Part shown: in pieces, positions 972-43,855 of the stretch | How positions within the stretch are numbered: position 1 is the first letter of the stretch | Layout: each line of letters begins with the position of its first letter | Source of the DNA: an uncultured Actinomycetes bacterium | Lineage (GTDB): Bacteria; Actinomycetota; Thermoleophilia; Solirubrobacterales; Solirubrobacteraceae | Assembly: GCA_963719305.1 (NCBI GenBank) | Contig: CAVRBL010000011.1 | Location: 388,459 to 452,458, forward strand | Length of the DNA: 64,000 nucleotides | Direction: 5' to 3' | The notes under the pieces: generated by a model | The model's input: the letters and a program-made list of their open reading frames with translations, nothing else | Database searches by the model: none | What the model was told of the DNA's origin: nothing | Translations under genes and position numbers: made by a program

Positions 972-991
972 TTTGACATTTGATGAAATAT
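972..991. promoter_or_regulatory. Regulon motif copy 1, overlapping a TTGACA -35 element
   Basis: TTTGACATTTGATGAAATAT (rc ATATTTCATCAAATGTCAAA) between the divergent LLM gene and ABC operon. Confidence 0.65.
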
Positions 992-1094
992 CGTCAAGAC
1001 TCGCCCGACGCGAAGATCCCAACGGGCCGGCTGGACCGTAATTGACCAGGGCCAAGCTCGAAGGCGAGAGCGTGTGACACGAGGGAGAGTGGAC

Positions 1095-2324
1095 ATGAGA
1101 CGGTGGCGAATCGTTCTGGCGCTAGCTGCACTGGCCGTTGGCGTGCCCCTGCTGGCCAGTTGCGGGAGCTCCGAGTAGCAGCAGCGGCAGCACCAACAGC
1201 CGTGGCAAAGGGCAAGCCGATCATCATCGGCTCAGCGGTCGATCTGAGCTCGACGATGAAGGCCTTCGACGGCCCGGCCCTGGCGGCCGCCCAGCAAGAG
1301 GTGAAGAAGATCAACGCCCAGGGCGGGGTGGACGGCCACAAGCTCGTGTTCGACGTCGAGAACGACCAGCTCAAGCCGGCGCAGACGCGGTCCGACGCAC
1401 TCGATCTGATCAGCAAGGGCGCCAACATCCTGTGGGTCACCTGCGATGTGGACTTCGCCACGCCATCGACCGAGGTCGGCATCTCGAGCGGCAAGCTGAC
1501 GGTATCGCCGTGCATCAGCACCGATCAGATGGGGCCCAAGCGTTTCGGGAGCGCCGGAAAGCTCGCCTTCACCTTCGGGAGCATCGCCCAGGACGAGGGC
1601 GCGGCGCTGGCCCAGTTCGCGATCAGCAAGGGCTGGAAGACGGCCGATCGTGGTCAGCGACAAGGCGATCGCCTACACGGTTAACGACGGCCAGGCGTTC
1701 GCTCAGCGGTTCACGCAGCTCGGTGGGAAGGTCGTCGGCGCAGTACAGCTTTACCCAGGGCGACCACACGGTCGGCACCGTCGCGAGCAAGGTCGCTTCC
1801 GCGAAGGCCCAAGTGATCGATCTGTCGGAGTTCTGGTCTCCGGCAGGCGACCTGCCGGCGTTCCTGTCCGACGTGCGCAGCGCTGGCGACATGACGCCCA
1901 TCGTCGGCCCGTGGTCGATCGACGGCACCTTCTGGCTCCCGCCGAACCCGAAGATCTCCACCAACATCTGGCACACGAGCTACTCCTCGATCTACGGCGA
2001 CGACCCGAACTCGCAGGTGGAGGCGCTCAAGTCGCAGCTTGCCGCCGAAGGCCAGTCTCCAGCGACGGGCGGGTTCGTGCTCGGGCGCCGCCGCGATCGA
2101 CGGCATCGTGCAGGCGATCAAGCAGGCCGGTGGATCGCTCGATGGAGCGAAACTGGCGAGCATCATGGAGAAATACTCGGGCGTGTCGACGATCTCGGGA
2201 CCGGTGACGTTCACGACGCAGGTCCACGGCGTGATCGGCCGACCGTGGCGGATGATCGAGGTCATGAACGGCAAGCCGCCGTTTCCTGGAGATGCTCAAG
2301 GCATCCAGCCCCGCGGGGCTCTAG
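1095..2324 (+). CDS. Branched-chain amino acid-type (HAAT) ABC substrate-binding lipoprotein (several frameshifts)
   Basis: RBS GAGGGAG, signal peptide MRRWRIVLALAALAVGVPLLASC (lipobox); INAQGGVDGHKL; pieces lie in ORFs 1103, 1650, 1138 and 2039. Confidence 0.8.
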
Positions 2325-2337
2325 CGGCCCAGGGTTG

Positions 2338-3114
2338 GTGAGCGGTGAGGTTTCGTCACCGGGGAGGGCCGAAGGGCTCCTTCGGGCCTCCTCCGTGTCC
2401 CGCGCCTTCGCGGGCGTGCAGGCGCTCGACGACGTAACGTTCGAGCTTACGCGCGACGAGGTCGTTGGCCTCATCGGGCCCAACGGTGCCGGCAAGACCA
2501 CGCTGATCAACCTGGTGTCGGGCTTCGACCGCCCGACGTCCGGGACGATCCAGTTCGACGGCCAGGATGTGACCCGTTGGAGCGCTGTCCGCCGCGCGCA
2601 CGCCGGTCTGGCGCGCACCTTTCAGCATGGCCACCTGTTCCGCGACCTGACCGTGCTCGAGAACGTGGAGCTAGCGGCGCTCGGCATCGGCGCCGGCGTG
2701 CGGGAAGCCCGTCGGCGCGCCGACGAGCTGCTCGAGGCACTCGAACTCCGCCACCGGGCCGACCAGCTTGCGGCGTCGCTTCCGCACGGCGATGAGCGCA
2801 AGGTGGGGGTGGCACGCGCCCTGGCCGGCCGCCCGCGCTACGTGCTGATGGACGAGCCCGCCGCCGGGTTGCCCGAATCGGAGATCGGCTCGCTGCTCGA
2901 CGCGATCCGTTCGGTGCGGGACCGCTTCCAGGCAGGGGTGCTCGTCGTCGACCACAACATGGCGCTGATCATGGAGGTCTCGGACCGCATCCAGGCGCTC
3001 GATCACGGGCGCACGCTTGCCGAGGGGACGCCGAGCGAGATCAGGCAGAACATCGACGTGACCGCGGCCTACCTCGGCGAGAGCGTCGCGAGCGAGGAGC
3101 CAGCCAGTGCCTGA
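2338..3114 (+). CDS. livG: HAAT ABC transporter ATP-binding protein
   Basis: GPNGAGKTT Walker A, GLARTFQ, LPHGDERK, MDEPAAG, VVDHNM. Confidence 0.9.
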   Translation: MSGEVSSPGRAEGLLRASSVSRAFAGVQALDDVTFELTRDEVVGLIGPNGAGKTTLINLVSGFDRPTSGTIQFDGQDVTRWSAVRRAHAGLARTFQHGHLFRDLTVLENVELAALGIGAGVREARRRADELLEALELRHRADQLAASLPHGDERKVGVARALAGRPRYVLMDEPAAGLPESEIGSLLDAIRSVRDRFQAGVLVVDHNMALIMEVSDRIQALDHGRTLAEGTPSEIRQNIDVTAAYLGESVASEEPASA

Positions 3115-3823
3115 GGCGATGCTCGAACTCGACGATCTCGAAGTCCGCTACGGGCCAGTGCGGGCGGTGCGCGGCGTGAGCCTCACCGTCGGCGACGGCG
3201 AGATCGTGGGGTTGGTCGGGCCGAACGGCGCCGGCAAGAGCACCACGCTGTTGACCGTGATGGGAGCGCTCCGTCCCGCCGCCGGAGACATCCGTCTCGA
3301 GCGCAGATCGATCGCCAGATTGGCCCCGGAGCGGATCGTGCGCGCCGGTGTGGCGCTCGTCCCCGAGGGGCGCCACATCTTCGCCGATCTGACCGTGGAG
3401 GAGAACCTGCGCCTCGGGCTCGTCGGTCGTGCGGGCCGCGACGGCACGGATGAGGATCTGGACTGGGTCCACGGGTTGTTCCCGGACGTTCGCGAGTTTC
3501 GTGCCCGGCGAGCCGGCGAGCTATCCGGCGGTCAGCAGCAGCAGCTTGCCATCGCCCGCGCGCTGGTCGCCGGCCCGCGGCTGATCCTGCTCGACGAGCC
3601 CTCGCTCGGCCTCGCGCCGACGCTCGTTCAAACCGTGCTCGGCGCGCTGGCCGAAGTCCGGCGTCGCGGGGTCTCGATCCTGCTCGTCGAGCAGCGCGCG
3701 CAGGTGTGCGTTGGCTTCGCCGACCGCACCTACGTCCTCAACAACGGCGAGATCCGGATGACCCTGACCCCGCGCGATGCGGGCGACACCGATCGCATGG
3801 TGGCGGCCTACTTCGGGTCATGA
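3107..3823 (+). CDS. livF: HAAT ABC transporter ATP-binding protein
   Basis: GPNGAGKST, VPEGRHIF, LSGGQQQ, LDEPSLGLAP, LVEQ. Confidence 0.92.
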   Translation: MPEAMLELDDLEVRYGPVRAVRGVSLTVGDGEIVGLVGPNGAGKSTTLLTVMGALRPAAGDIRLERRSIARLAPERIVRAGVALVPEGRHIFADLTVEENLRLGLVGRAGRDGTDEDLDWVHGLFPDVREFRARRAGELSGGQQQQLAIARALVAGPRLILLDEPSLGLAPTLVQTVLGALAEVRRRGVSILLVEQRAQVCVGFADRTYVLNNGEIRMTLTPRDAGDTDRMVAAYFGS

Positions 3824-4709
3824 ACGCGCTCCAGACGATCATCGACGGTATCGCGCTCGGGGCGATCTACGCGCTCGTGGCGGTCGGGATCGCGCTCGTG
3901 TTCGGGGTCCTGCGCCTGATCAACTTCGCCCACGGTGAGCTGATCACGGCCGGCGCGTACTCGCTCTACCTGACGCGGCACCTGCCGCTGGCGGCGAGCA
4001 TCGTGATCTGCTTCATCACCTGCATCGTGCTGGCGGTGCTGGTCGAGGCGGTCGCGTTCCGGCCGCTGCGCGGTGCGGCGCCGATGACCACGCTGGTCGC
4101 GACCTTCGCGGTCGCGTACGCGCTCGAAGCGGTGTGGCTGGTCGCGTTCAGTCCCCAGGGGAAGGTGGCCGACCTTTTGTCGGTGCTGAACGACACTGCG
4201 ACGCACGGGTCGCTGCACTTGCGCTGGGTGACGATCGTCGAGATCGCGGCCGGCGGCGATCCTGCTCGGCGGCACGGGGCTGATCCTGAACCACACGAAC
4301 ATCGGGCTGCAGATGCGCGCCGCGGCGACCGACTTCCGGGCAGCGCGCCTGCTCGGGGTCAAGGCCAACCAGGTGATCCGGTTCGCGTTCGTGCTCGCCG
4401 GCGTGATGGCAGCCGTCGTGGCGCTGCTGCTCACCGTCCAGGAGCCGCTCGTCTCGCCGACGTTTGGCCTCGACCTCACGGTCCTGGCGCTGGTCGGCGC
4501 CGTGCTCGGCGGGATCGACCGGCTCGTGACCGCGACCGTTAGGCGGCTTTGCGATCGGCTTCATCACCTCGGTGCTCAGTGACGTGCTGCCCACCTCGCA
4601 GAACGTGTTCGTGACCGCGTTCACGTTCCTGATCGTGCTGGTGGCGCTGCTGGTGCGACCGTCGGGCCTGTTCGCGCCGCTCGGCCAGGCGACCGCGGAT
4701 CGGGTATGA
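3820..4709 (+). CDS. livH: HAAT ABC transporter permease (frameshifts near 4255 and 4540)
   Basis: GAIYALVAVGIALVFGVLRLINFAHGE; MRAAATDFRAARLLGV; ATGA overlaps at both ends. Confidence 0.88.
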
Positions 4710-5857
4710 GCGCGATCGCCTCGCTGGCCCGCCGCTCGCAGGGCGTGCGCCTGCGCTCCGTGCCGACGCTGATCGCTCCGGTCGCCCTGATCGTGATCGT
4801 CGGCCTCGTGGGCAGCGCCACGTCGGTTGCCACCCAGCAGAACTTCATCAGCGCGGAGGTGTCGGTGACGATCGTGATCGGCCTCTACATCTTCGTCGGC
4901 AACTCCGGCGTGTTCTCGTTCGGGACGATCAGCTTCACCGCGCTGGGGGCGTTCGCCGCCGGCGAGATGACGATCCCGACGAGCACCAAGCACCTGGTGC
5001 TGCCGGGATTGTGGTCGTTCATCGCCCACCACTCGGTCGGGAACGTGCCCTCGCTGGCCCTCGCCGCTGCGCTCGGAGCTGTGTACGCCTTCCTGGTCGG
5101 CATTCCGCTCGTGCGCCTATCGGGGATCGCCGCAGGGATCGCGACGTTCGCCGTGCTCGCGATCACCTACAACGTCTTCAATTTCTGGACCAAGATCGGG
5201 CCCGGCGCCCAGACGCTGTCGTTGGTGCCGACCACGACCGGCATGTCGCAGGCGACGATCGGCGCTCTCATCGCGGCCGTGGTGGCGTTCGTGTACCAGT
5301 CGAGCCGGCGCGGGCGGCTGCTCCGGGCCTCGCGCGAGGATCCCGCGGCCGCCCAGGCGATCGGCGTCAACATCCGCCGCGAGCGGCTCCTGGCGTTCAC
5401 ACTGTCCGGCGCCGTAGCCGGTTTGGGGGGCGCGCTGCTGGTCCATCAGCTCGGCTCGATCGTCGCCAGCCAGGTGTACATCGACCTGACGTTCCTCACG
5501 CTCGCGATGCTCGTGATCGGCGGGATGCGCAGCCTGTGGGGAGCGACGCTCGGCGCGGTCCTGATCAGCCTGCTCGACTCCTATCTGAGCAAGGCCGAGA
5601 ACGGCATATCGCTTGGGCTGTTCAGTGTCAACCTCCCGTCCGGCACCGCCAACCTGGTGCTGGGCGTGTTGATGGCGCTCATGCTGCTCTTGCGGCCACA
5701 GGGGCTGACCGGCGGGCGGGAGCTCGTCCCGCGCATCCCCGCTTCGATCCGCACGCGGCTCGGTAGGCGCGGCGGAGGCGAGCCGGCGCCGGCGATTGGG
5801 AGCGCGGAGCAGGGCGCGGGGACGGACGAGGACCGTGCGCCGCTCGAACGTCGCTAA
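4706..5857 (+). CDS. livM: HAAT ABC transporter permease
   Basis: GNSGVFSFG, GRLLRASREDPAAAQAIGVN, LVIGGMRSLWGATLGA; many TM segments. Confidence 0.9.
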   Translation: MSAIASLARRSQGVRLRSVPTLIAPVALIVIVGLVGSATSVATQQNFISAEVSVTIVIGLYIFVGNSGVFSFGTISFTALGAFAAGEMTIPTSTKHLVLPGLWSFIAHHSVGNVPSLALAAALGAVYAFLVGIPLVRLSGIAAGIATFAVLAITYNVFNFWTKIGPGAQTLSLVPTTTGMSQATIGALIAAVVAFVYQSSRRGRLLRASREDPAAAQAIGVNIRRERLLAFTLSGAVAGLGGALLVHQLGSIVASQVYIDLTFLTLAMLVIGGMRSLWGATLGAVLISLLDSYLSKAENGISLGLFSVNLPSGTANLVLGVLMALMLLLRPQGLTGGRELVPRIPASIRTRLGRRGGGEPAPAIGSAEQGAGTDEDRAPLERR

Positions 5858-5876
5858 CGACGCCCGGCGTCCGGCG

Positions 5877-6944
5877 GTGCCTACGTTTCAGATCAGCTGC
5901 GTTCAGCTCACGATGGAGCCGGTTCCGTTCATGCTCGAGACCGCGCGCGCACTCGATCGTCATGGCTTTGGCACCTTCTGGCTGGGGGAGGCGTACCCGT
6001 GGTGGCGCAAGCATGCAATGGAAGCCCGTTCCTCGACGGCGCTGTCGATGCTGATCGCGCGCGAAACCCAGCGCATCAAGATCGGCTGGGGCATCATCTC
6101 GCCTTACAGCCGGCACCCGGTGCAGGTGGCGATGGAAGCGCGCGTTATCCAGGAGCTCGCGCCAGAGCGATTCCTGCTCGGGTTCGGGACCTCGAAGATC
6201 TTCCTCAACAACATCGGCCGCTCCGGCGAGCCCCGTGAGGCCAAGCCGCTCGCGCACGCGCGCGACAGCGTGAGCATCGTGCGCGCCGTGCTGGCCGGTG
6301 AGGGCTTCCGCTACGACGGACGGATCTACTCCGCCGACGTGCCCCCGCTGGATCCCCTCGCCGAGGCGCCGCGGGGCACGGTGCCCGTCTATCTGGCCGG
6401 GACCGCGCCGCTGATGCAGCAGCTCGCCGGTGAGATCGCCGACGGCGTGCTGACGCCTTCGATCACCACTCCCGCCTTTGTCCGCTACACGCGCGAGAAC
6501 CTCGTAAAGGGCGCGGCCAAGACCGGACGCGACGCGGACGAGATGGACGTCGGCTGCACGATCGTCGCCTCGATCGACCGCGATCGGGACCGGGGTCGCG
6601 CCGGCGCCAGGGAAATCACCGCCATGTACCTCGCGAACAAGGTGCAGAACATCAAAGGAGCGGCCGACACGCTGCTCGAGCTGGCGGGCATCGACCCGGA
6701 TGAGATCAGACCGATCGCAGACGCGATGGAGCGTGGCGGCCGCGTGGCTGCCGCGGCTGCGATCACCGACGAGCTGTTTGAGCGGGCAAAGCCGATCGCC
6801 GGGACTCCCTCGGACTGCATCGCCGCGATCGAGGAATACCGCGACGCCGGCTGCACCAACGTCATGCTCGAGCTCTGGGGCGACGATCGCCAGGCGCAGA
6901 TCGAGCTGCTCGGCAAAGAGGTGTTGCCGCACTTCAGCGCATGA
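5877..6944 (+). CDS. LLM-class flavin-dependent oxidoreductase
   Basis: GFGTFWLGEAY, IGWGIISPYSRHP, PVYLAGTAP, AGEIADG, KEVLPHF; start codon uncertain. Confidence 0.88.
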   Translation: MPTFQISCVQLTMEPVPFMLETARALDRHGFGTFWLGEAYPWWRKHAMEARSSTALSMLIARETQRIKIGWGIISPYSRHPVQVAMEARVIQELAPERFLLGFGTSKIFLNNIGRSGEPREAKPLAHARDSVSIVRAVLAGEGFRYDGRIYSADVPPLDPLAEAPRGTVPVYLAGTAPLMQQLAGEIADGVLTPSITTPAFVRYTRENLVKGAAKTGRDADEMDVGCTIVASIDRDRDRGRAGAREITAMYLANKVQNIKGAADTLLELAGIDPDEIRPIADAMERGGRVAAAAAITDELFERAKPIAGTPSDCIAAIEEYRDAGCTNVMLELWGDDRQAQIELLGKEVLPHFSA

Positions 6945-9168
6945 GCGAGGCGTTCGTCCTCGGTCCGAGCGCAGGTGACTCCTCAGCGCTCGATCGACCG
7001 CTGAGGCTCGACCCGGTCACCTTCGAGGTGCTCCGTCACAAGCTGGAGGCGGTCAATGAGGAGCAGGCAATCACCCTGAAGGCGGTGTCGGCTTCCCCGA
7101 TCGTCACCGACGCGAGCGATTTCAACAACGGCCTCTATCTGCCGCCGGGGGATATCGTCTCGATGGGCCCCCAGGTCGTCTACCACTCCGGCGCGATGCC
7201 GATCGTGATCGAGCATGTGGTCAGCGAATGTGGCGAGAACCCCGGGATCCGCGAGGACGACATGTTCGTCGTCAACGATCCCTACATGGGCCCGGTGCAC
7301 CATCCCGATGTGGCGCTCGTGGCACCGATCCACCATCTCGGCGAGCTCATCGGGTGGGCCGGGGCGGCGGCGCACGAGGTGGATGTCGGCGGCATGAGCG
7401 CGGGGAGCATCTCGGTCGGCGCGCGCGAGAAGCAGCAGGAGGGGCTGATGTTGCCGCCAACGAAGCTGGTTGACGGCGGGCGACTGCGAGCCGATGTCTG
7501 GCGCTTGATCCTCAACATGACCCGCCAGCCGGAGATGGTGGCGCTCGACCTCAAGGGCTTCATCGCGTCGAACGTGGTGGCGAAGCGACGAGTGCTCGCG
7601 CTGATCGATGAGTACGGCCTCAACACCGTGCGTGGCACGATGAACGAACTGATCCGCTATTCGGAGCGGCGCTTTCGCGAGCGGCTGCTCGAGCTGCCCG
7701 AAGCCGAGGTCCGCTCGCGCGGCTTCGTCGACCATGACGGCCACAGCAATCGCATATACCGCGTCGACGTCCGGGTGCAGAAGCGCGGTGACGTGCTGCG
7801 CTTTGACCTCTCGGACTCCTCGCCGCAGGCACCCGGCTTCATCAACTGCACGGCGAGCACACTGGTCGGCGCCGTCTTCGGCGGTGTGGCGCCGATCCTC
7901 GGGCGCGACATCCCGTGGAATCAGGGACTGCTGAACGCGATCGAGATCGTGGCCCCCGCGGGGCTCGTATGCAACGCGATCCCGCCGGCGCCGACCGGAT
8001 CGGCGACGATCGCGACTGGCTGGGTCGTCGTCAGCACGGTCGTGCACGCGATCTCGAAGCTCCTGTCGCTCTCCGAGGATCACCGCCGCTATGCGCAGGC
8101 CGTCACCAACGGCAGCTTCGACGCGTTGGTGATCGGCGACCACAACCAGTACGGCGAGCGATACGGCACGCAGGTGATGGACGCGCAGCTCGGCGGCGGT
8201 GGCGCCAGTGCGGTAGCGGACGGCATCGACCAGTCGGGAGGCTTCGTCACTCCGAGGCCCGGCATCCCCAACGTCGAGACCAGCGAGATGCACGGCCCGA
8301 TGCTCTACCTCTATCGGTCCTTCCTCCGAGACTCGGGCGGCGACGGGGCTTGGCGCGGCGGTCGCGCGGCTGGGCTTGCGTTCACACCGCATGGCGTTGA
8401 GCGGCTGCGCTGCACGCTGACCACGCAGGGAGTCGAGGTGCCGGTTTCGCCTGGGTTGTTCGGCGGCTGGCCAGGACGATGCAACGAGCACGTCGTAATC
8501 CGCAGCACGACGGCTGCCCGAGATGATGGCTCGGGGCGAGCTCCTGCTTCGAGCTCTCGCCCGCCAGCGGGGCGCTCGAGCTCGCCCCGCTCGGCGGCAG
8601 GGCCGAGCAGCTCCCGGCGAAGGCGGAGCTCGAACTGCGGCCCGGTGACGTCCTCAAGTACAGCTGGTCCGGAGGCGGAGGGTTCGGCGACCCGCTGGAG
8701 CGTCCGCTCGAGCTGGTCGCCGCCGATCTGGAGGCCGGCATCGTCTCTGCCGCGCGCGCCGCACGCGCCTATGGGCTCATCGGCGGAACGGCAGGGGTCC
8801 GGCGGGCGGCAGGCGAGCTACCGGGCGACCAGCTCCGTCGCGCGCGGCGTCGGCGCGTGCCGCCCGCCGGCGCGAGCTCCGCCGAGGCAGCAGGGCAGAT
8901 CCTGCCCTTCGGTCCGCTGATGCGGGTTGCACGAACGGCCGCCGAAGCCCAGGTTGAGTGCCGCTGCGGCTGGCCGCTGGGGTCCGCCGGCGGCAATTGG
9001 AAGCTGGGCGCCGCGCGTGCAGTCCTCACCCCGGCCGAGCTGCCGGACGGCATTCGCCTCCATCGGGACCTCGACCTGGTCAAGCTCTCGTGTCCCGGCT
9101 GCGGCGCCGTGCTGTCGGTCGAGATCTGCGAAAGCGGCTCCGAGCCGATGGCCGACCTGCGGATTTGA
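6941..9168 (+). CDS. hyuB: Hydantoinase B/oxoprolinase subunit with C-terminal acetone-carboxylase-gamma-like Cys4 domain (frameshift ~8515-8550)
   Basis: LDPVTFEVLRH, NDPYMGPVHHPD, AHEVDVGG, DSGGDGAWRGG, GGGGFGDPLER; tail ECRCG...SCPGCG. Confidence 0.88.
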
Positions 9169-9176
9169 TCAAATAT
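9163..9176. promoter_or_regulatory. Regulon motif copy 2 (perfect palindrome ATTTGATCAAAT)
   Basis: Just upstream of the RidA ATG at 9191. Confidence 0.55.
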
Positions 9177-9190: not shown

Positions 9191-9598
9191 ATGCCTAAGC
9201 GGGGCCTCGGGCTGGTGCGCCACGCCGGCAAGGTCATGGTCTGGGGGAAGGGCGCGGTCGCCGGTGACTTCGTCTTCCTCTCTGGCGCTGAGGCCCGCGC
9301 CGACGACACGGACGTGCCAGTCCAGGGCATCAGGGCGCAGACCGAGCTCGCGCTCAACCGGATCAAGCAGCGGCTCGCGGAGGCCGGGGCGTCTCTGGAG
9401 GACGTGGTCAAGTTCGTCTGGTACCTCACCGACCGGAGCCTGGAGACGGAGTTCTACGAGGCGCGCGACGGCTGGCTCGAGCGCAACTGCAAGGCGCTGC
9501 TGGACGAGCGCTCCTACGGCTCGACTCTCCTGATCGTCGGCCTCGCGCGCGAGGACATGCTGGTCGAGATCGACTGCATCGCGTACGTCGGAGAGTGA
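9191..9598 (+). CDS. RidA/YjgF/UK114 family protein
   Basis: GDFVFLSG, QTELALNRIKQRLAEAGASLEDVVK, STLLIVGLAREDMLVEIDCIA. Confidence 0.88.
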   Translation: MPKRGLGLVRHAGKVMVWGKGAVAGDFVFLSGAEARADDTDVPVQGIRAQTELALNRIKQRLAEAGASLEDVVKFVWYLTDRSLETEFYEARDGWLERNCKALLDERSYGSTLLIVGLAREDMLVEIDCIAYVGE

Positions 9599-9629
9599 CC
9601 CGGCGCAAGCCCCTAGGGACGTAAGAGCC

Positions 9630-11694: not shown

Positions 11695-11701
11695 TCAGGG
11701 C

Positions 11702-14688: not shown

Positions 14689-14711
14689 GGGTGATCGATC
14701 CTTCCCGATCA

Positions 14712-14726
14712 TGTATCAAATGTCAA
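14712..14726. promoter_or_regulatory. Regulon motif copy 3
   Basis: TGTATCAAATGTCAA in the 40 bp gap between divergent hyuB and the flavoprotein gene. Confidence 0.7.
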
Positions 14727-17960: not shown

Positions 17961-18005
17961 CGACCAGACCCTCGCTAGCGGCCATCGCCCGGAGCCTCGC
18001 AACGC

Positions 18006-23538: not shown

Positions 23539-23559
23539 CGTCGCACGGCCGGCCCACCT

Positions 23560-26808: not shown

Positions 26809-26836
26809 GACTCCGACAGGTGCAAGAATTCCGGAT

Positions 26837-31526: not shown

Positions 31527-31541
31527 GGAGGCCGATCGACC

Positions 31542-32455: not shown

Positions 32456-32460
32456 CCGGC

Positions 32461-34068: not shown

Positions 34069-35077
34069 CGACCTTGCCTGCAACGCCTCCCCGCTCAAGC
34101 ATGCGGTGACCGTCCGCGACCTGCTCGAGCGGTAGCACGTCGGCGATCAACGGTTGAAAGTGACCGGCGTTCAGGTGGCGGGCCGCGGCCAGCGCAGCGT
34201 TCATCGTGCCGAGCCGCGAACCGAGGATTCGCACCTGGTTGACGAACATGGCCGTCACGTCCATCGTCACAACGTCGCCGCTGGTCGCGCCCGCGCTGAC
34301 GATCGTGCCGCCGGACGCGCAGATCGCCAGCGACCGCTCCCAAGTGGCCGCAGCCACGTGCTCGAACACGATCGTCGCGCCCTGGCCGTCGGTGTACTCG
34401 AGCACCCGCGCGACCACATCGTCGGTGTAGTGGTCGACGATCAGCTCCGGGTGCAGCGCCTCCAGCGCCCTGCGCTTGGGTTCCCCGCCAGCGCTGGCGA
34501 TCACACGCGCGCCCGCGAGCCGCGCGATCTCGATCGCCGCGCTGCCGAGGCCGCTGGTCCCGGCCCATACGAACACCGTGTCCGCCGGCCCGACGCCCGC
34601 CTTGCCGACCAGCATCTCCCATGCCGTGATGTAGGAGTTTGCAAAGCACGCGACGTGCTCCGCGGGAATCTCGGGGTTGACAGCGATCGCGAGCTCCTGC
34701 GGCACGAGCGCCAGCTCGGCGTAGGCGCCGTGGTAGACGTCGAAGGCGACGCAGTACTGCGAGCGATCGCGCCGGCAAGGCTCGCAGCGCCCGCAGGTGA
34801 TGTATGGGTTGATCGTGATGCGCTGGCCTGGCGCAAACCGTTCGACCCCCGCTCCGACCCCGGCGACGGTCCCACACAGGTCGATCCCGAGGACCGCCGG
34901 CAGCGGCACGCGGTACGCAGGATGGGGGTGTCCCGCGCGCATCCACAGATCGCGGCGGTTGACCGAGGTGGCAGCCACCCTGACCAGTAGCTCGCCGGGT
35001 CCGGGAACGGGGTCCGGCAGCTCCTCGGCGGAAAGCACTTCCGGTCCGCCCAGCTCGTGCATGACGACCGCGCGCAT
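34046..35077 (-). CDS. MDR family NAD(P)H-dependent oxidoreductase (structural Zn site only)
   Basis: GGPEVL, SVNRRD (no catalytic Cys), CGRCEPC..C, GTSGLG, GKVVI. Confidence 0.88.
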   Translation of the reverse strand: MRAVVMHELGGPEVLSAEELPDPVPGPGELLVRVAATSVNRRDLWMRAGHPHPAYRVPLPAVLGIDLCGTVAGVGAGVERFAPGQRITINPYITCGRCEPCRRDRSQYCVAFDVYHGAYAELALVPQELAIAVNPEIPAEHVACFANSYITAWEMLVGKAGVGPADTVFVWAGTSGLGSAAIEIARLAGARVIASAGGEPKRRALEALHPELIVDHYTDDVVARVLEYTDGQGATIVFEHVAAATWERSLAICASGGTIVSAGATSGDVVTMDVTAMFVNQVRILGSRLGTMNAALAAARHLNAGHFQPLIADVLPLEQVADGHRMLERGGVAGKVVIGLDER

Positions 35078-35085
35078 CTAAGCGC

Positions 35086-35199
35086 TCACTCGAGCAGCGC
35101 TGTCGCCTCGATCTCGTTCAGCAGGCCTGGCAGCGCCAGGCTCGTGACGCCGGCCGGCGGGAACAGTTCGGGCGGGTCGATCCGCTCACGGTGGGGCAT
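35086..35199 (-). pseudogene. Internally deleted RidA-family remnant (37 aa)
   Basis: MPHRERIDPPELFPP (RidA-like N-terminus) joined directly to AGVTSLALPGLLNEIEATALLE (RidA-like C-terminal strand). Confidence 0.6.
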
Positions 35200-35244
35200 G
35201 TCCGGGGTTGCCGTAGATCGCGACGGCTGCGAGAGTTTCATATC

Positions 35245-35262
35245 TTTGATCACAGGTCAAAT
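35245..35262. promoter_or_regulatory. Regulon motif copy 6
   Basis: TTTGATCACAGGTCAAAT (14/16 match to consensus) in a divergent intergenic region. Confidence 0.65.
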
Positions 35263-35322
35263 ATGCTGCGACGAGGACGGCGGTGACCGCGGCCGCGCTG
35301 GCCGGGAGACGAGGAGGACGAG

Positions 35323-36120
35323 GTGAGAAACGTGTACGAGGCAAGCCATAGCGCGGTTGAGCTTGGGCACGGCCCGCTTGCGTTCGCCCGCGCGGGCCGG
35401 GGGCCGGCGGTCGTGCTACTGCATCAGACGCCCCGTTCTTGCGACGAGTACCGCGACGTGTTGCCGCTTCTGGCCGCCGGTGGCTTTCAGGCGCTCGCGT
35501 TCGATACGCCCGGCTTCGGAGATTCCTCGCCGCTCCCCGGCGAGCCCAGTATCGAGCGGTGGGCGGAGGCGATTCACGCCGGGATCGACGCGCTATCGCT
35601 TGCGCCAGCTGCGGTGGTCGGCCATCACACGGGCGGGGTGATCGCTGTCGAGCTGGCGTTCCGGCGCCCGAAGGACGTGAGCGCCCTGGTGCTCAGCTCG
35701 ACGCCGCTAACCAAGGCCGAGCAGTCGGTCGCCCCAGGGGTATCGACTGTTGATGTGGGCGAGGACCCCGACAGCCTTCGCTGCTCGCGTGCAGGCTTCT
35801 ATCCCGAAGGCCGGCCGGAGCTGCTCGACCGCTATGTGATGGACGCGATGCGCGCCGGTCCGCTCGCGCAAAAGGGCCATCGCGTCGTGGCCTCGTACGG
35901 AATGGACGGCAAGCTCGCGCCGTTGACGATGCCGGTGCTGCTGATTGGAGCGGACGAAGACCCATACGCCTACCCGGACCTCGAGCCCATGGCGCGAGCG
36001 CTTCCGCACGCAGAACGAATCGTGATCAGGGGCGGGATGGTGGCGCTGCCCGATGGCTGGCCGAGCGAGTTCGCGGGTGCCGTGGCGGGATTTCTGGAGC
36101 GGGCGTGGACTTCGCGTTAG
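35323..36120 (+). CDS. Alpha/beta fold hydrolase with GHHTG elbow
   Basis: RBS GAGGAGG; LLHQTP, DTPGFGDS, VVGHHTGG. Confidence 0.85.
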   Translation: MRNVYEASHSAVELGHGPLAFARAGRGPAVVLLHQTPRSCDEYRDVLPLLAAGGFQALAFDTPGFGDSSPLPGEPSIERWAEAIHAGIDALSLAPAAVVGHHTGGVIAVELAFRRPKDVSALVLSSTPLTKAEQSVAPGVSTVDVGEDPDSLRCSRAGFYPEGRPELLDRYVMDAMRAGPLAQKGHRVVASYGMDGKLAPLTMPVLLIGADEDPYAYPDLEPMARALPHAERIVIRGGMVALPDGWPSEFAGAVAGFLERAWTSR

Positions 36121-36122
36121 GA
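36040..36122 (+). repeat. Direct repeat copy A (3' end of the hydrolase gene)
   Basis: 47 bp identical to 43700-43746, then near-identical through GGACTTCGCGTTAGGA. Confidence 0.9.
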
Positions 36123-36138
36123 ACCTGAGCCCAAGCCG

Positions 36139-38178
36139 ATGGCGCGGCTGGGCATCGACATCGGCGGCACGTTCGTGGACTTGGTCCTGGCCACGACGGA
36201 TGACGGCTTGGTCTTCGAGAAGGTGCTCGCCGAGCCCGCGAACGTTCTGGGATCAATTACCCGCGGCGTCGAGCAACTGCTGAAGCGCGCCGACGTCGAT
36301 GGATCCGAGGTTGTCGAGGTTCTGCATGCGACGACGCGGGGATCGAACATCGTCCTCGAGCGCGCCGGGCCGACAACGGCGTTAGTGGTGACGCGCGGCT
36401 TCAGGGACGTGCTTCAGATTCAGCGTGCCCTGCGCTGGAGCATGTACGACGTACAGCTCGATAAGCCTGAGCCGCTTGTGCCTCGTTCGCTCGCGTTTGA
36501 GGTAGGCGAACGGATGCTTGCCGACGGGTCAGTGCACGTCGCGCTCGACGAGGACGAGGTACGCGCCATCGCCGCGCAGATCCGCGCTGCCGGAGTCGAG
36601 GCGGTGGCGGTGACGTTCCTGCACTCGTACGCCAATCTTGCGCACGAGCGAGCCGCGGCCGCGGTGCTCAAGGCTGAGTTGCCTGACGTGCCGATCACGA
36701 TCTCGAGCGACGTGTCGCTTCAGGCGAGGGAGTACGAGCGCGCGAACACCGCGGTGGTGAATGTATACGTATCCACCGCGATCGCCGAATATATGGCTCT
36801 GCTCGGCGAGTCGCTGGAGGGGGTCGGCGTATCGGCGCCGATCTGGGTCATGCAGTCGAGCGGCGGGCTCGCGTCCGTGCGCGACGCGATTGAGCGGCCG
36901 GTGCGCGTCATTGAATCTGGTCCGGCTGCCAGCGTGGTCGGCGCGGCCGCTTTCGGCAAGGCGGCTGGCAGCGACAATGTCATCTCCTTCGACATGGGCG
37001 GCACGACCGCCAAGGTCGCGGTGGTGAGCATGGGCATCCCTGCGATGACCACGTACTTCGAGCTCCAGCGCGTCGGCAGCCGGCGGGGAAGCGGCCTCGC
37101 CGTTGACATACCCGCGCTCGATCTCGTCGAGGTGGGGACAGGCGGCGGGAGCATTGCCGAGGTGCGCGAGGGCACGCTCCGCGTCGGGCCGCGTAGCGCG
37201 GGCGCTGACCCCGGCCCTGCGTGCTACGGCCGCGGTGCCACCGCGCCGACCGTCACCGACGCGAACCTCCTGCTCGGGTATTACGACCCAGAAATCTTCG
37301 CCGGTGGCCTCGTCCTTGATCTGGCTGCTGCCAAGGCCGCCATCAACCGTCTTGCGGACCAGCTCGGCGTCGAGCCGATCGAAGCCGCTTGGGGCATCCA
37401 CGACGTCGCGACGACCGATATGGAGCATGCCATCCGGCTTGTGTCGATCAATCGCGGGTTCGACCCGCGGGATCACGCGCTCGTCTGTACAGGCGGCGCG
37501 GCACCGGCACACGGGTCGCGTCTCGCGCACGCGCTCGGATGCAAACGCGCGATGATCCCGCTTGCCGCCAGCGGTGGATCCGCTCGCGGCCTGCTTGAGG
37601 CCGCGGCCTCGACCGAGGTGACGAGGACCGCGCTAGTCAGGCTAGACGGCGTGGAGTCGGCAGCGAGTTGCTCAGAGACGATCAGCGAGATGCTGCAGGA
37701 GGCAGAGCGCAGCTGGTCTGGAGCCGGCACCGAGAGCATCGTGCGGTTGACACTCGGCATGCGCTACGTCGGTCAGGGCCACGAGTTGCTGGTGCCGATC
37801 GAGCCCGACTTGCGGGACCCGGCCGGACTCGCGGAGCGCTTTCACCAGCGTTACGAGCGTGTGTACGGCTATCGCGATGATCAGCCCGTGGAAGTCGCCA
37901 CGTGGCAGGTTTCACTGGTGCGCCGGGCTCCTGCGCCCGTCGGAAGCTTTGCGGAGTACAGAGCGGCGGACTCGGTTCGAGCCTCTCGGCGCTCTGCTTA
38001 CTTTCCCGAGACCGGGATGATCGAGGTCGACGTGCATCCCAGGGCATTGCTGCACGAGGGTGACGCGGTCGAGGGTCCATGCTTGGTGGCGGAGCCGACC
38101 ACGACGACGGTCGTGCTGCCAGGCGACCGGGCCGAGGTTGTCGCCGATCTGTCCCTCCTGATCCACATCGCGCAGTGA
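36139..38178 (+). CDS. hyuA: Hydantoinase A/oxoprolinase ATP-binding subunit
   Basis: GIDIGGTFVD, EYERANT, ESGPAA, DMGGTT, GPACYGRG, MRYVGQGHE. Confidence 0.92.
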   Translation: MARLGIDIGGTFVDLVLATTDDGLVFEKVLAEPANVLGSITRGVEQLLKRADVDGSEVVEVLHATTRGSNIVLERAGPTTALVVTRGFRDVLQIQRALRWSMYDVQLDKPEPLVPRSLAFEVGERMLADGSVHVALDEDEVRAIAAQIRAAGVEAVAVTFLHSYANLAHERAAAAVLKAELPDVPITISSDVSLQAREYERANTAVVNVYVSTAIAEYMALLGESLEGVGVSAPIWVMQSSGGLASVRDAIERPVRVIESGPAASVVGAAAFGKAAGSDNVISFDMGGTTAKVAVVSMGIPAMTTYFELQRVGSRRGSGLAVDIPALDLVEVGTGGGSIAEVREGTLRVGPRSAGADPGPACYGRGATAPTVTDANLLLGYYDPEIFAGGLVLDLAAAKAAINRLADQLGVEPIEAAWGIHDVATTDMEHAIRLVSINRGFDPRDHALVCTGGAAPAHGSRLAHALGCKRAMIPLAASGGSARGLLEAAASTEVTRTALVRLDGVESAASCSETISEMLQEAERSWSGAGTESIVRLTLGMRYVGQGHELLVPIEPDLRDPAGLAERFHQRYERVYGYRDDQPVEVATWQVSLVRRAPAPVGSFAEYRAADSVRASRRSAYFPETGMIEVDVHPRALLHEGDAVEGPCLVAEPTTTTVVLPGDRAEVVADLSLLIHIAQ

Positions 38179-39847
38179 CGCATCCACTCGACATAGCGGT
38201 CATCTGGGGACGGCTCGCCGCGATCGCCGAAGAGATGGCCGAGGCGCAGCAACGCACCGCCTACTCAGACCAGGTGAGGGAAGGCGGCGACTACTCGACC
38301 GCGATCTTCGACGCATCCGGCCGCATGCTGGCGCAGGCGAACCGGAGCCCCGCGCACCTGGGAGCGATGCCGGCGGCGGTGCGGAACATACTGACCGTAT
38401 ATCCCGCAGACGCGCTCCGGCCGCGCGACATCGTCGTGATGAACGATCCCTACATGGGCTCTGGACACCTACCGGATATGTTCGCCATGAGCCCCTCGTT
38501 CGTCGGTGATCGGCTCGTCGGTTTCGTCGTCAGCTGCGTGCATCTGACAGACGTCGGAGGGCCGGCTCCCGGTAGCCAGGCGGTGGTGGGCGTGACCGAG
38601 CTGGTTCAGGAAGGGCTCCGGTTCCTTCCCACCCTGCTCTACCGGCGCGGTGAGCCAGTTCGCGAGATCATCCAGCTGATCGCCGCGAACGTACGCGTTC
38701 CCGAGGCGGTCCTCGGCGATATCCGCGCGCAACGGGCCGCGCTTCACGTTGGCGCCCTGAGGCTGGCCGAGGTCCACGCACAGCGGGGATCAGATCTCGT
38801 CGAGGCCGTCGGCGAAGAGATCCTTGAGCGGTCGGAGCAGGCGGTGAGGTCAGAGCTGAGGACGATCCCAAACGGAAAGGTGCACTTCGTCGACCACATC
38901 GACGACTATGGCCCGGGCGACGCCGCCAATCCGCATCGAGGTGACGATCACGGTCGACGACGATGAAATCCTCTTCGACTTCACGCGGGACCGATCCCCA
39001 GACGCCGTCGTCGCTGAACTGCACCCTCTCCTACGTCGAGGCGTACTGCTACTGGTCCACGAAGGCGATCACGACGCGGGATGAGATACCGCAGAATGAG
39101 GGCCAGTTGCGCCCGGTGAAGGTAATCGCAGAGCCCGGGTCGTTCTTCAATCCGCTCCCGCCGGCCGCGCTCGGCGGCCGAGCACTTGATGAACCAGCGG
39201 ATCGTGGAGCTCATCTTCGGCGCTCTGGCGCAGGCAGTCCCGGAGCGGGTCTGCGCGGCCAGCGGGCAATGGCTGAACCCTATCTTCGGGGGTGTCGATC
39301 CCAGGACGGGCAAGCCCTTCATCTTCTACGACTACGTCATGGGTGGAGTCGGTGCGCGGATGCACAAGGACGGCATCGATGCCATGTCGCCCGTCGTCTC
39401 GGTCGAAAATATCCCGGTCGAGGCGCAGGAGGCCCGCAATCCGATTATCGTCGAGCGCCTGGAGCTCATTCCTGACTCTGGCGGCGCAGGCCGATTCCGC
39501 GGTGGCCTCAGCGTGCGCAAGGACGTGCGGATTCTCGGCACCGACGTTGTTCTCTCGAACCTGACCGATCGTCAGGTGTTCAGCGCCATACGGACTCGAC
39601 GGGGGCAGCCCCGGGTCGCTGGGCGAGACAGTCATGAATCCAGGAACGCCGGCGGAGCGCAGGCTCCATTCCAAGGATCTAGTTGATGTCGCTCAGGGTG
39701 ACGTCATCAGCTTCCGCTGCTCGGGCAGCGGTGGCATCGGATCACCGGTGGAACGCTCACGCGAGAAGGTTCTGACGCGATGTGCGCGAAGGACTCGTCA
39801 CGGCCGACGCCGCGAGGACGATATACGAGCTGAAGGTCACCGATTGA
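38175..39847 (+). CDS. hyuB: Hydantoinase B/oxoprolinase subunit (several frameshifts)
   Basis: RTAYS..VREGGDYS, NDPYMGSGHLPD, HLTDVGG, QEGL, DSGGAGRFRGG, GSGGIGSP. Confidence 0.88.
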
Positions 39848-39864
39848 CATCCCATCCGCGCAAC

Positions 39865-41377
39865 ATGGGGTTCCTGCGGCCTCCGCTCCCGGAGGACCTC
39901 CTGCGCGCTGCCGAGCGCGAGCATCTCGATCTGTCGCTCGAGGAGTCCGAGGAGCTTGCGCCTTTCGCCGCCGATTTCGTGCGGGCGTTCGACGACGTGG
40001 AGGAGCTGCCGGACGTGCAGGTACCAGTGCGCTATCCGCGCACACCGGCGTACGCGTCCCTCTCCCCAGGACGATCCGGTGAACGCGTTCGTTCGGGTTC
40101 TCGAAATCCAGGGTGCCTCTAGCGGACCGCTCGCCGGTCGTCGGATCGGCATCAAGGACAACATCGCCGTGGCCGGGGTCCCAATCACGAATGGATCGCG
40201 AACCCTCTCGTACACGCCGCTTCAGGACGCGGTCGTCGTCGAGCGTATTCTCGACGCGGGCGGGTTCATCGCCGGCAAGCTCAACCTCGACGACTTCTCG
40301 GCTGCCGGATTCGGCGACACCAGCGTGTTCGGGCCGCCACGCAATCCGATCGATCCTGCGCGCTCCGCTGGGGGATCCTCTTCGGGCTCGAGCGCGGCCG
40401 TCGCCGCCGGCCTAGTCGACATGGCGCTGGGGGTGGACCAGGGAGGGAGCGTCCGGATGCCGGCTGCGGCCTGCGGGCTCGTCGGGCTGAAGCCGACGCA
40501 CGGACTCGTGCCCTCCTTCGGCCTGACGCACATGGACCACACGCTGGACTGCATCGGGCCGATCGCGCGCACAGTGGAGGAGGTCGCCTTGTTGCTGTCG
40601 GTGATTGCTGGGCCGGACTGGCGTGACGCCCAATGGACCCGTGACATCGAGCTCGACGACTACGTCGCGGCAATGGAAGATGGCGTCAATGGGTTGCGCG
40701 TTGGGGTGGTGAGTGAGTCGATGGACTCGGAGCTGTGTCAACCGGCTGTGCTCGCAGGCGCGGAGGCGACCGCCGGTGCGCTCAGACGCGCGGGCGCTGA
40801 GGTCGAAGAGGTCAGCATACCTCTGTGGACGTCGGGCTTTGCCATCTGGGTCGGCGTACTGGTGGCGACGTGGGCGCCGATGCTCCGGAGCTACTCGGTG
40901 GGATTCGGCCACTTCGGCCTGATCGAGGTCGAGCGCGTTCACGCCAGCTCGATCGTGCGCCACAACCAGGGCCACTTGCTGCCATCGACCATCAAGCTCG
41001 TGCTGCTCGTCAATGGCTATCTCGAGGAGCGCTACAACGGGGTCCCGCTCGCCCGCGCCCACAACCAGCGTCTGGCCTTGCGCAGCGTCGCTCGACAATG
41101 CGCTGGAGCGGTTCGACATCCTTCTCGCGCCGACGGTGACCCGGGTTGCGGTGCCGCTGCCGGAGGGTCGGCTGACGCCGGTCCAGAGCGATGAGCCGGA
41201 TCGTCTCAGAGACCCGGCTCACCTCTGTCACGAACGTGACTGGCCACCCGCGCTGGCGGTGCCCAGCGGCCGGGATCAGGATGAATGCCGACGTCAGTAC
41301 AGTTGATTGGCGGGCGGTGGGACGACCGTCGGGTATTAGCGGCGGGCGCAGCGATGGAGGCGGAGCATCTGGCTTGA
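39865..41377 (+). CDS. Amidase signature family enzyme (frameshifted)
   Basis: IKDNIAVAG, GKLN, GGSSSGS, GVDQGGSVRMPA, GLKPT. Confidence 0.88.
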
Positions 41378-41379
41378 CG

Positions 41380-42382
41380 ATGCACGTCGGCCTGAATCTC
41401 AACAATCGTGAGGCGCTGATTGCGCCGGATTACGACGTGACCCGGCTGCTGGCGCTCGCTGAGCGGGCCGAGGAACTGGGACTCGATTCCGTCTGGGTGG
41501 GCGACAGCCTGGTGGCGCGGCCCCGATATGAGCCGCTGGCGCTGATCGGGCGCGCTGGCGCAACGGACGACGAGGGTGCGCGTAGGAACCGCCTGCCTGG
41601 TCACCACGCTGCGTCACCCGGTGCAGCTCGCGCATGCCTGGTCGACGCTGGACGTGCTCTCGCGAGGGCGGACGGTACTCGGTGCCTGCGCCGGAAACAT
41701 CGCCGAGGAAGGGGTGAAGAAGGAGTTCGAGTTGATGGGAATCGATCCGCGTCGGCGAATGCGCGTGTTCGAGGAAGGGCTGAGGGTTTCCGCGCACGCT
41801 TAATGACCGACGGGCGCGTGACGTTTGCCGGCGAGCATTTCAGTTGGACAACATCGCCTTCTACACGGGCATGGAGCCCGAGCCCCTCCTTCCCGAGCAG
41901 AGGCCTCCTCCGATCTGGGTCGTCGCGAACCCTTCGATCGGCGCCTCCGGCGAGCGGCGGGGCTCACGAGCCGCCGCGCGGGTGGCTGAACTCGGCGACG
42001 GTTGGATGACCTGCTGCCGAGCGTCGCACCCGGAAGAGGTGGAGAACTTCCTCGACTGACCTCTCAACGCTGCGTCGGCCTCGACGGGTTCGACGTCGCC
42101 TATCAGGTGACGATCACGCTCGGAGCGACCAAGCAGGATGCACTGGCGGAGCAACGCCGATACATCGACGCCTACTACCCGGGCTTCCGCGACGCGGTGG
42201 CGCTCGCGGACTGGGGCCCGGCTGGCGCGCCCGACGAGGTTGCGGCGTGGATCCGCCGCTTCTCCAATGCCGGCGTGACCGCGTTCATCTGCCGATTCGC
42301 CTCGCTCGACCAGTTCGGTCAGCTCGAACTGTTTGGTAAGCACGTCGTCCCCGGCCTGCGGACGGAAACGCCGAGGTGCTGA
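41380..42382 (+). CDS. LLM-class flavin-dependent oxidoreductase (several frameshifts)
   Basis: AEELGLDSVWVGDS, LRHPVQLA..TLDVLSRGR, PPIWV, AELGDGW. Confidence 0.82.
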
Positions 42383-42464
42383 GGCTCAGGTCCGAGACCG
42401 CCGGCCGGCTGCGCGTGGGAAAGATGCGCTACGCGGACGCAGAAGCCGACTCGCAGAGTTCGCA

Positions 42465-43645
42465 ATGTGCGTGATCGTCGGCGCTGGGGTCGGTGGACTC
42501 AGCGCTGCAATTGCGCTGGCACGCAAGCGTGTGAGTGTCAAGGTGCTTGAGCGCGTGCCGGTCCTGACGACGGTGGGGGCGTCGCTTGCGCTTGATCCAA
42601 ATGCGATGCGGGTGCTTAGAGAGCTTGGTTTGATGGATCCGTTGCGGCGCGTTGGTGTCAGGGTCGATGCTGTCGAGCATCTGCGTTGGGACACTGGCGC
42701 CATCCTGTTTCGCACGCCTCTTGGCCTCGGAGCGGAGGAGCATTTTGGGGCACCGGCACTTGACTTCCTGCGCTCCGATCTTCAGCGGGCGCTTGTCGAG
42801 GCACTTCCCTCAGGCGCACTCATGCTTGGGGCCGAGGTGGCAAGGGTCGAGCAGGATGCCGGGGGCGTCGATGTGACGCTCGCAAGTGGGCGCGGTATGC
42901 GGGCGGACGTGGTGGTCGCTGCGGATGGCGTCAACTCGCGGATCCGGCAGCAACTGATCGGGGACCATGACACGCCGGTCTTCTCTGGCACGGTTGTTTA
43001 TCGCGGGCTCGCACCCCGAAAAGGCGCGGCCGGGATAGATCCGGACGCGGTGCATCGCTATTGGGTGGGGCCTTCATCGGCATTGCGTGGTGTACTGGAT
43101 TTCAGCCGGAGAATTGATGGCCGTCAACGTCGCGATCAAGCATCCGCATGAGTCCCATCTGTCGGCGGCGAACGAGGCGGACCCACAAGAGGTGCTGGGG
43201 TACCTTGACGGCTGGGACGCTCAACTTCTGAAGCGTTTCAGGTGTTGCGCTGTGATACGTCGCAACAGTGTCTTTGTACGCACGACCTCTGGACAAGTGG
43301 TCGTTCGGCCGGATTCTCCTGCTGGGTGACGCGGCGCACGCTATGGAACCGTTCGAAGCGCAGGGTGCTGCGCAAGCAGTTGAGGATGCATATGCCTTGG
43401 CCGAGTGCCTCGGCGGTGTGGGCCGAGATGACGTCGAGACCGCACTAGAGCGCTACCAGCAGGTCCGGATCGCCAGGGCGAACGAGGTGCAGCGGTCCTC
43501 GAGCGATGCGGCAGAAATGTTCTATCTGCCCGATGGTCCGGCGCAGCGCGTGCGAGACGCGGATTTCGCGACGCTACAGCGGCGACAACCGTGGGGCCGT
43601 CGCCAGCGGATCTGGGAGTATGACGTCCGGTCAGCGGTGAGCTGA
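42465..43645 (+). CDS. FAD-dependent monooxygenase, paralog of 30324-31526 (frameshifted; start uncertain)
   Basis: IVGAGVGG, ADGVNS, FSGTVVYRG, GDAAHAMEPFEAQG, RQRIWEYDVR. Confidence 0.85.
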
Positions 43646-43699
43646 CACGTTGAGCAAGGCAAACGCGGCGACGTGCGGACCGCTCGTCGAGGGGGACAC

Positions 43700-43776
43700 G
43701 TGGCGCTGCCCGATGGCTGGCCGAGCGAGTTCGCGGGTGCCGTGGCCGGATTGCCGGAGCGGACTTCGCGTTAGGA
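43700..43776 (+). repeat. Direct repeat copy B (intergenic duplicate of the hydrolase 3' end)
   Basis: Matches 36040-36122 with a few substitutions and a 6 bp deletion. Confidence 0.9.
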
Positions 43777-43811
43777 CCGCGTGAAGGCGCGATCATGGGC
43801 TTAGCTCGCGC

Positions 43812-43855
43812 TTGCATCGGTGGGGAGCCCGCTTTTATAATGTATCAAATGTCAA
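43812..43855 (+). promoter_or_regulatory. Sigma70-type promoter with regulon motif copy 7 overlapping the -10 and the predicted start site
   Basis: TTGCAT-N18-TATAAT (43812-43841) overlapping TGTATCAAATGTCAA (43841-43855). Confidence 0.7.

Follow-up and report, generated by a model that had tools for sequence, protein, structure and literature searches.

Box-marked transcription units of the gene island

The stretch of DNA analysed here (the window; 64,000 nucleotides, G000:C11:388459–452458) belongs to the genome of an uncultured soil member of the Solirubrobacteraceae (G000), a 4.15-Mb assembly of 12 contigs with 68% G+C and 86.5% completeness. It includes a catabolic gene island that extends beyond its left end, and from about −14 kb to +49 kb (negative positions lie to the left of the window) a short palindromic box is found at the start of every transcription unit of this island. 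Each of the 11 sites is intergenic and stands at the head of a transcription unit, and taken as a whole they cover ~50 genes over ~63 kb, including the operon of a GntR-type regulator. According to the Pfam scans by which gene families were assigned, the part left of the window encodes OsmC, a metallo-beta-lactamase-fold (MBL) protein, an SDR, a luciferase-like monooxygenase (LLM), an uncharacterised protein and a BVMO, followed by a Cox-like molybdenum hydroxylase (M, S and L subunits with CoxG) and an LLM-GntR/FCD operon. The enzymes encoded in the window include several LLMs, three hydantoinase/oxoprolinase A/B sets (HydA and HydB), RidA, SDRs, FAD monooxygenases, amidases and two M24 (creatinase-like) hydrolases, and the transporters are a Liv-type ABC, an MFS and a second ABC system. 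The coordinates are collected in Table 1.

An earlier note on this DNA had described seven in-window sites of one AT-rich motif, each upstream of a gene. All seven exist and each heads a transcription unit, including those in the four divergent promoter regions of the span, all of which carry the box; however, the motif was recovered in the proposed form at five sites only. The 16-mer of that note, allowing ≤3 mismatches, has five matches in the window (973–988 on the − strand, 14711, 18006, 35245 and 43840) against 0.03 expected from shuffled sequences, and the exact 12-mer ATCAAATGTCAA is common to four window sites. At 9163 and 26795 the match is limited to the palindromic core (ATTTGATCAAAT and ATTTGATCAGAA, respectively), while the sites at 14712 and 43841 turned out to be half-sites plus TTGACA. 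The series is also longer than had been noted, as it goes on to the left at about −331, −2437, −11535 and −14073. The operator consensus derived from 89 sites of homologous loci (see below) is the 16-bp palindrome AnWTTTGATCAAAWnT with an invariant GATC, and the box occurs in both directions relative to the downstream genes.

The exact sequence TTGACATTTGAT is present in five copies in the 4.15-Mb genome, all of them within window −324 to 43855, the box core TTTGATCAAA in two copies, both in the island (9164 and 18006), and ATTTGATCAAAT in a single copy at 9163, whereas plain TTGACA occurs 594 times. Because these sequences are so rare genome-wide and confined to the island, a generic −35 context does not account for the box, and the possibility raised in the earlier note, an equal frequency of the motif in unrelated promoters, does not hold when the whole genome is searched. 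A seed matrix built from six strong sites detected a site not used as seed at window −2440 with 29.3 bits, the next genome match having 17.9 bits. In the symmetric 16-bp matrix, built from congener sites only with zero G000 sequence put in, the best seven matches of the whole genome were those at window −14073, −11535, −2437, −331, 976, 9161 and 18003, and with S9 and S10 (Table 1) nine of the top 11 genome hits lay in the island, within ~50 kb of it. Outside the island, two sites of ≥17.5 bits were found in 4.09 Mb (0.0098 per 20 kb).

The candidate regulator

Search for a regulator just left of the window, as the earlier note had proposed, led to an FCD-type GntR gene on the − strand (L001:9623–10366), 1.6–2.4 kb from the window's edge, whose operon is headed by the box and whose homologues also carry it. 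This gene is the second one in the operon headed by site −331 and the sole regulator in a box-bearing unit; no regulator gene was detected by the Pfam scans in the window from 1 to 49 kb. The protein consists of an N-terminal winged helix-turn-helix (wHTH; PF00392, E = 4.8e-15, residues 20–82) with the recognition helix MSPMPIRE, and a C-terminal FCD domain (PF07729, E = 1.6e-20, residues 92–216). Four residues, E101, H148, H192 and H214, do not vary in alignments A1 and A2 and may correspond to the FCD metal/ligand site (an acidic residue plus three His). The closest solved structure by sequence, PDB 7xp0/7xp1, matches over the full length of wHTH and FCD (E = 7.6e-22).

To the right of the island lie two further FCD-type GntR genes (52563–53243 and 57344–58048) and a LysR gene (59591–60484), situated among CoA-transferase, thiolase-like and FMN-reductase genes, and the box is on none of them. 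The statement of the earlier note that the two in-window GntR genes lack the motif was thus borne out, there being no site of ≥13 bits near either.

Co-occurrence of box and regulator in related genomes

Among the 24 congeners of the genus sample, eight encode a homologue of the regulator (57–63% identity), and in all eight cases TTGACTTTTGATCATTGAT lies ~36 nt before the start codon of the homologue. The DNA-binding domain of the regulator is 79% identical to those of the congener homologues and the FCD domain 50%, which fits a common operator with a shifted ligand. At least one further TTGATCAA site was found within 15 kb in each of the five congener neighbourhoods examined and at least two in four of them. 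These congener sites head AKR-OCD-PALP-tryptophan dioxygenase, OsmC-bicupin-Liv transporter, class-V aminotransferase and kynureninase units. In the genus sample, TTGATCAAAT is present in at least two copies in all nine genomes with the homologue, and it is absent from 10 of the 16 without it. A family draw, spread evenly over 150 genomes of 51 genera with a homologue threshold of E = 1e-60 or better, gave TTGATCAAAT in four of four genomes with the homologue versus 30 of 146 without it; the highest counts belonged to G108 (seven copies), which has the best-scoring sampled homologue (66% identity), and to G000 (six copies).

The congener regulator promoters (L003:1450–1488 and the same place in L004–L010) have the arrangement TTGACT-16-GATACT-8-ATG without a Shine-Dalgarno sequence, which looks like a leaderless mRNA transcribed from an autoregulated promoter. 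HydB of G000, with its GTG ~39 nt after the TTGACA of S7, may be similarly leaderless.

A scan of species-representative genomes yielded 80 homologue loci (55–84% identity, 1.33 Mb), nearly all in soil metagenome-assembled genomes (MAGs) labelled Solirubrobacterales, Solirubrobacteraceae, Thermoleophilia or Acidimicrobiales. The congener matrix detected 89 sites of ≥17.5 bits in 56 of the 80 loci (1.34 per 20 kb), and 75 of these sites are located ≤350 bp upstream of a recognisable gene start. The gene downstream is most often CoxM (25 sites) or the regulator itself (17), then LLM-M20 (10), aminotransferase (8), OsmC (7), kynureninase (6), LLM1 (5) and CrtI-a (5). The usual order in close orthologues (72–84% identity) is HydA-HydB-SDR / [site] LLM-PBP-Liv-GntR / [site] coxMSL-coxG, and the coxM site is often the same 16-mer as in G000. 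Cox-like molybdenum hydroxylase, caprolactamase-like hydantoinases, LLMs, CrtI-like flavoproteins, M24 hydrolases and Liv transporters recur around the regulator in shuffled order. The co-occurrence of the island families and of tryptophan dioxygenase and kynureninase in many combinations and orders supports the island being one functional unit and not a chance neighbourhood, and the recurrence of the same gene families beside the regulator in dozens of genomes speaks for the one pathway or substrate family that the earlier note had supposed. In L014–L023 (congeners) and L027–L105, tryptophan 2,3-dioxygenase (TDO), kynureninase, ornithine-cyclodeaminase-like, PLP-enzyme, aldo-keto reductase, OsmC and bicupin genes share box-marked neighbourhoods with Cox, LLM and M24 genes in many MAGs.

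Two other interpretations of the comparative data were dropped. Five-congener synteny matched only the regulator and a LivF-like ATPase, as if there were two separate or rewired regulons, but the wider sample mixes both gene sets. Expansion of the regulon in G000 was considered as congeners have 0–2 exact 12-mers, but the close orthologue loci are similar in sites per 20 kb.

It is unlikely, though it deserves more weight than the alternatives discussed below, that the box is a genuine operator but belongs to a different transcription factor, such as one of the FCD-GntRs or the LysR at window 52.5–60.5 kb or an unlinked regulator. Three other regulators are indeed encoded within 20 kb beyond the rightmost site, and the left-hand GntR was assigned only by its position and co-occurrence with the box. 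However, besides the lack of ≥13-bit sites near them, the right-hand regulators are 24–32% identical to the candidate and differ in the sequence of the recognition helix, and the box follows the homologues of the left-hand regulator into loci of differing gene content, where it stands on their own promoters.

Promoter geometry and proposed mechanism

TTGAC precedes the TGATCA core in 45 of the 89 sites, 3 nt ahead in 39 and 5 nt ahead in six, and since its offset to the core varies, it is an element separate from the palindrome. In 75 distinct TTGACnnnTGAT sites, an nAnnnT hexamer was found at spacers of 16, 17 and 18 in 18, 26 and 20 cases, respectively (64/75), and at spacers of 14, 15, 19 and 20 in 0, 2, 0 and 0 cases. 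The sites aligned by TTGAC show an A/T-rich block at positions 24–30, after which the sequence becomes G+C-rich again. The peak of nAnnnT at spacers 16–18 indicates that TTGAC is the −35 box and that the palindrome lies in the spacer. Core promoter elements are thus overlapped at the sites, as the earlier note had pointed out in favour of a repressor.

Considering the sequence comparisons above, the box is probably the operator of a pathway-specific FadR-subfamily GntR repressor encoded at L001:9623–10366; we infer binding by this left-hand GntR, repression rather than activation, and an effector. At about half of the sites the left arm abuts the −35 box TTGACn, with the palindrome filling the −35/−10 spacer, and at other sites the palindrome overlaps the −10 box or the transcription start. 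Since the palindrome occupies the spacer, the −10 box or the start, a dimer on the box would shut out RNA polymerase (promoter occlusion). The regulator would also control itself, its own operon being among the targets. The FCD domain would bind a small molecule, probably a carboxylate that the island pathway has as an intermediate or substrate, and the ligand-bound repressor would leave the DNA, as may be expected from its family, co-inducing all units.

Several points weigh against this assignment. A strict sigma-70 scan of five regions (S3, S5, S7, S8 and S11) returned no promoter, the consensus used being of E. coli type, which may not suit this phylum; the −10 hexamers at the scanned G000 sites match only at A2 and T6, which accounts for the negative scan. 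S7 and S11 each have one good half-site only, and the TTGACA of S11 faces away from any gene. Sites of ≥17.5 bits are lacking in 24 of the 80 homologue loci, some of which show diverged variants, while in others the regulator sits inside an operon; moreover, these loci were picked via the regulator, so that the co-occurrence of the box in them is in part built in. Free of such selection are only the presence/absence tests in the genus and the family, and as related genomes are not independent, the counts of these tests are indications and not probabilities. Finally, FadR-subfamily operators have a core of the GT-N-AC type (t.GT.N.AC.a), to which the TGATCA core found here is unlike. This mismatch concerns the type of the operator, not the family membership of the protein.

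Less likely still than binding by another factor is that the same protein activates some promoters or has a dual role at them. An adjacent TTGAC is missing from S6, S9 and roughly half of the sites in the homologue loci, the geometry of S11 is unlike that of the other sites, and certain promoters are activated by some FadR-family proteins; on the other hand, wherever the −35 box is present the palindrome is inside the spacer, and at S11 the box covers the −10 box and the start, which are classic positions of repression.

A non-regulatory box, being either a repeat spread by duplication or a mobile element or a strong promoter context, is highly improbable: the identical 12-mer occurs in five copies, S7 and S11 agree at 18 of 19 bases and a 63-nt direct repeat surrounds a 7.66-kb block ending just before S11, but the likeness stops at the edge of the box with unrelated flanks, the palindromic core is kept in dozens of genomes while the nearby intergenic DNA diverges, the box, in contrast to the widespread TTGACA, is found only in the island, and the Pfam scans of the island genes gave no transposase nearby. 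A CRP/GlxR-type site (suggested by TGTGA in S10) was rejected as the consensus is TTTGATCAAA and not TGTGA-N6-TCACA, and so was an RNA element, the box being palindromic and found in either direction with respect to the genes downstream.

Individual sites and genes of the island

S7 and S11 consist of TTGACATTTGAT followed by ACAT(G/T)AT. S6 holds the sole ATTTGATCAAAT of the genome, and the orthologous RidA-proximal site in locus L041 reaches 26.1 bits. The site upstream of OsmC is composite (L024:7927–7960, window −14073..−14040): it reads TGATTTGATCAAGAGTACAAGATCAAAT, that is, a full palindrome and a third half-site ~10 bp further. All five congeners examined have kept this arrangement (GATTTGATCAACACTACAAAATCAAA) in front of OsmC, and two dimers may bind there.

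Terminator-like hairpins were noticed directly beside S5 (992–1010, − strand) and adjoining S11 (43819–43833, + strand), the latter of which would terminate the preceding + strand operon shortly before the S11 promoter. The 63-nt direct repeat (36040–36102 and 43700–43762, 95% identical) represents the 3′-end of the hydrolase gene 35323–36120. It flanks the 7.66-kb block that contains HydA, split HydB, amidase and fragments of LLM and FAD monooxygenase, and S11 comes after its second copy. The block looks like an insertion or duplication that parted the hydrolase gene from the S11 promoter.

The − strand gene at 24456–26765 encodes a 769-aa fusion of a luciferase-like (F420/FMN) oxidoreductase and an M20 (ArgE/DapE-type) deacylase domain. 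The two parts are conserved as neighbours in many of the homologue loci, and the box often directly precedes the gene. Several genes are broken across frames: LLM (73–942/−225..425), the C-terminal domain of HydA (9630–11694), HMGL-like (21172–22462), MBL (31542–32455), HydB in three pieces (38079–39686) and the LLM and FAD-monooxygenase fragments (41191–43645). The HydA pieces form one frame in the single orthologue locus checked (L028). The split genes are either indel errors of the long-read MAG or results of real decay.

None of ten key proteins reached an equivalog cut-off in NCBIfam, and only sub-threshold likenesses to caprolactamase subunits and aerobic CODH group 5 were obtained. As all these similarities are below the threshold, the chemistry of the island cannot be named.

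Table 1. Box sites, regulator gene and target units of the island. Positions refer to the window, with those left of it negative; bits and genome-wide ranks are those of the congener-only symmetric matrix unless indicated.
Feature	Position	Strand	Score, rank	Context
Operator site	−14073 (L024:7927–7942)			Upstream of OsmC
Operator site	−11535 (L001:465–480)
Operator site S3	−2437 (L001:9563–9578)			Between regulator stop codon and coxM; full palindrome
Regulator gene (GntR/FCD)	−2377..−1634 (L001:9623–10366)	−		Second gene of the operon headed by site −331
Operator site	−331 (L001:11669–11684)			Heads LLM-GntR operon
Operator S5 (ACATTTGATGAAATAT)	976..991	+	22.0 bits, rank 4	−35 TTGACA at 973–978 precedes; divergent region, split LLM (−, 73–942) / Liv-type ABC operon (+)
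Operator S6 (GGATTTGATCAAATAT)	9161..9176	.	24.9 bits, rank 2	Upstream of RidA-HydA (9191–11694); full palindrome
S7, half-site plus −35 (TTGACATTTGATACATGAT)	14708..14723	−	33.1 bits (seed matrix); <13 bits (symmetric matrix)	TTGACA 14721–14726; divergent region, HydB-SDR (−) / CrtI-like flavoprotein a (+, ATG 14729)
Operator S8 (TTGACATTTGATCAAAGCG)	18003..18018	−	20.6 bits, rank 7	Upstream of CrtI-like flavoprotein b (17960–16338); full palindrome
Operator S9, weaker (ATATTTGATCAGAAGA)	26795..26810	.	19.1 bits, rank 9	Divergent region, LLM-M20...MFS operon (−, 26765–18084) / M24b-pentein-hydrolase...AMP-ligase operon (+, 26837–34068)
Operator S10 (TTGACCTGTGATCAAAGATATG)	35242..35257	−	18.1 bits, rank 11	Divergent region, Zn-ADH (−) / hydrolase-HydA-HydB-amidase operon (+)
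S11, half-site plus TTGACA (TTGACATTTGATACATTAT)	43837..43852	−		Overlaps TATAAT (43833–43838) of the + strand promoter, read by inspection, for the Peripla_BP_4-amidase-ABC operon (43881–49067)
Target operon	1103..8920	+		Liv-type ABC transporter (binding protein, permeases, two ATPases), LLM, hydantoinase B
Convergent target units	9191..14712			RidA-HydA (+), HydB-SDR (−); caprolactamase-like, below cut-off
Two CrtI/amine-oxidase-like FAD proteins	14729..17960			Own site each
Target operon	18084..26765	−		LLM-M20 fusion, FAH-family hydrolase, M24 (creatinase-like), HMGL-like (split), two PanE-like reductases, MFS
Target operon	26837..34068	+		M24b, pentein (ADI-like), alpha/beta hydrolase, CMD, FAD monooxygenase, MBL (split), AMP-ligase
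Target units	34046..49067			Zn-ADH (−); hydrolase-HydA-HydB(split)-amidase-LLM/FAD-monooxygenase fragments (+); Peripla_BP_4-amidase-ABC transporter (+)

Significance and comparison with known systems

With the box, a large putative regulon of abundant, almost uncultured soil actinobacteria can be defined from sequence. It ties ~50 genes of unassigned specific function into one putatively co-regulated unit, the substrate of which would be revealed by the ligand of the regulator, and so an opaque gene island recurring in dozens of MAGs becomes experimentally approachable. We propose only tentatively that the box marks one conserved, uncharacterised ~50-gene pathway of uncultured Solirubrobacterales and related Actinomycetota that degrades tryptophan-derived or other N-heterocyclic carboxylates and responds to a single effector through a GntR with an undescribed TGATCA operator. 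The parts of such a pathway would be the Cox-like molybdenum hydroxylase, the ATP-dependent caprolactamase-like ring-openers, the LLM-M20 fusion, the CrtI-like flavoproteins and a HOD-like hydrolase-fold enzyme. A literature search for TTGATCAA with GntR, or for kynureninase with the GntR family and an operator, gave nothing relevant, and the TGATCA operator core was not found described there.

The bacterial kynurenine pathway is controlled by KynR, a regulator of the Lrp/AsnC type. The system described here resembles it in that the box stands beside tryptophan 2,3-dioxygenase and kynureninase genes in congeners and many MAGs, but the regulator is of the GntR/FCD and not the Lrp/AsnC type, and neither TDO nor kynureninase was seen in the 86.5%-complete assembly of G000.

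The FadR-subfamily (FCD) GntR repressors, such as E. coli FadR, PdhR, LldR and the VanR-group, share with the candidate the GntR wHTH and FCD domains as well as a palindromic operator on the core promoters of adjacent catabolic genes, their own operon included. NCBIfam detected weak resemblance to CsiR, PhnR, NanR, PdhR and LldR, all below cut-off and none reaching an equivalog cut-off, and PDB 7xp0/7xp1, annotated as ‘Probable transcriptional regulator’, is a distant relative. Compared with these repressors, the predicted regulon is unusually large. A local autoregulated FadR-subfamily regulon is a well-known kind of system, and its mechanism would be that of a textbook local repressor; the present one is set apart by the TGATCA core, by its 11 sites and ~50 genes, by its spread over dozens of uncultured Actinomycetota and by the uncharacterised pathway it serves.

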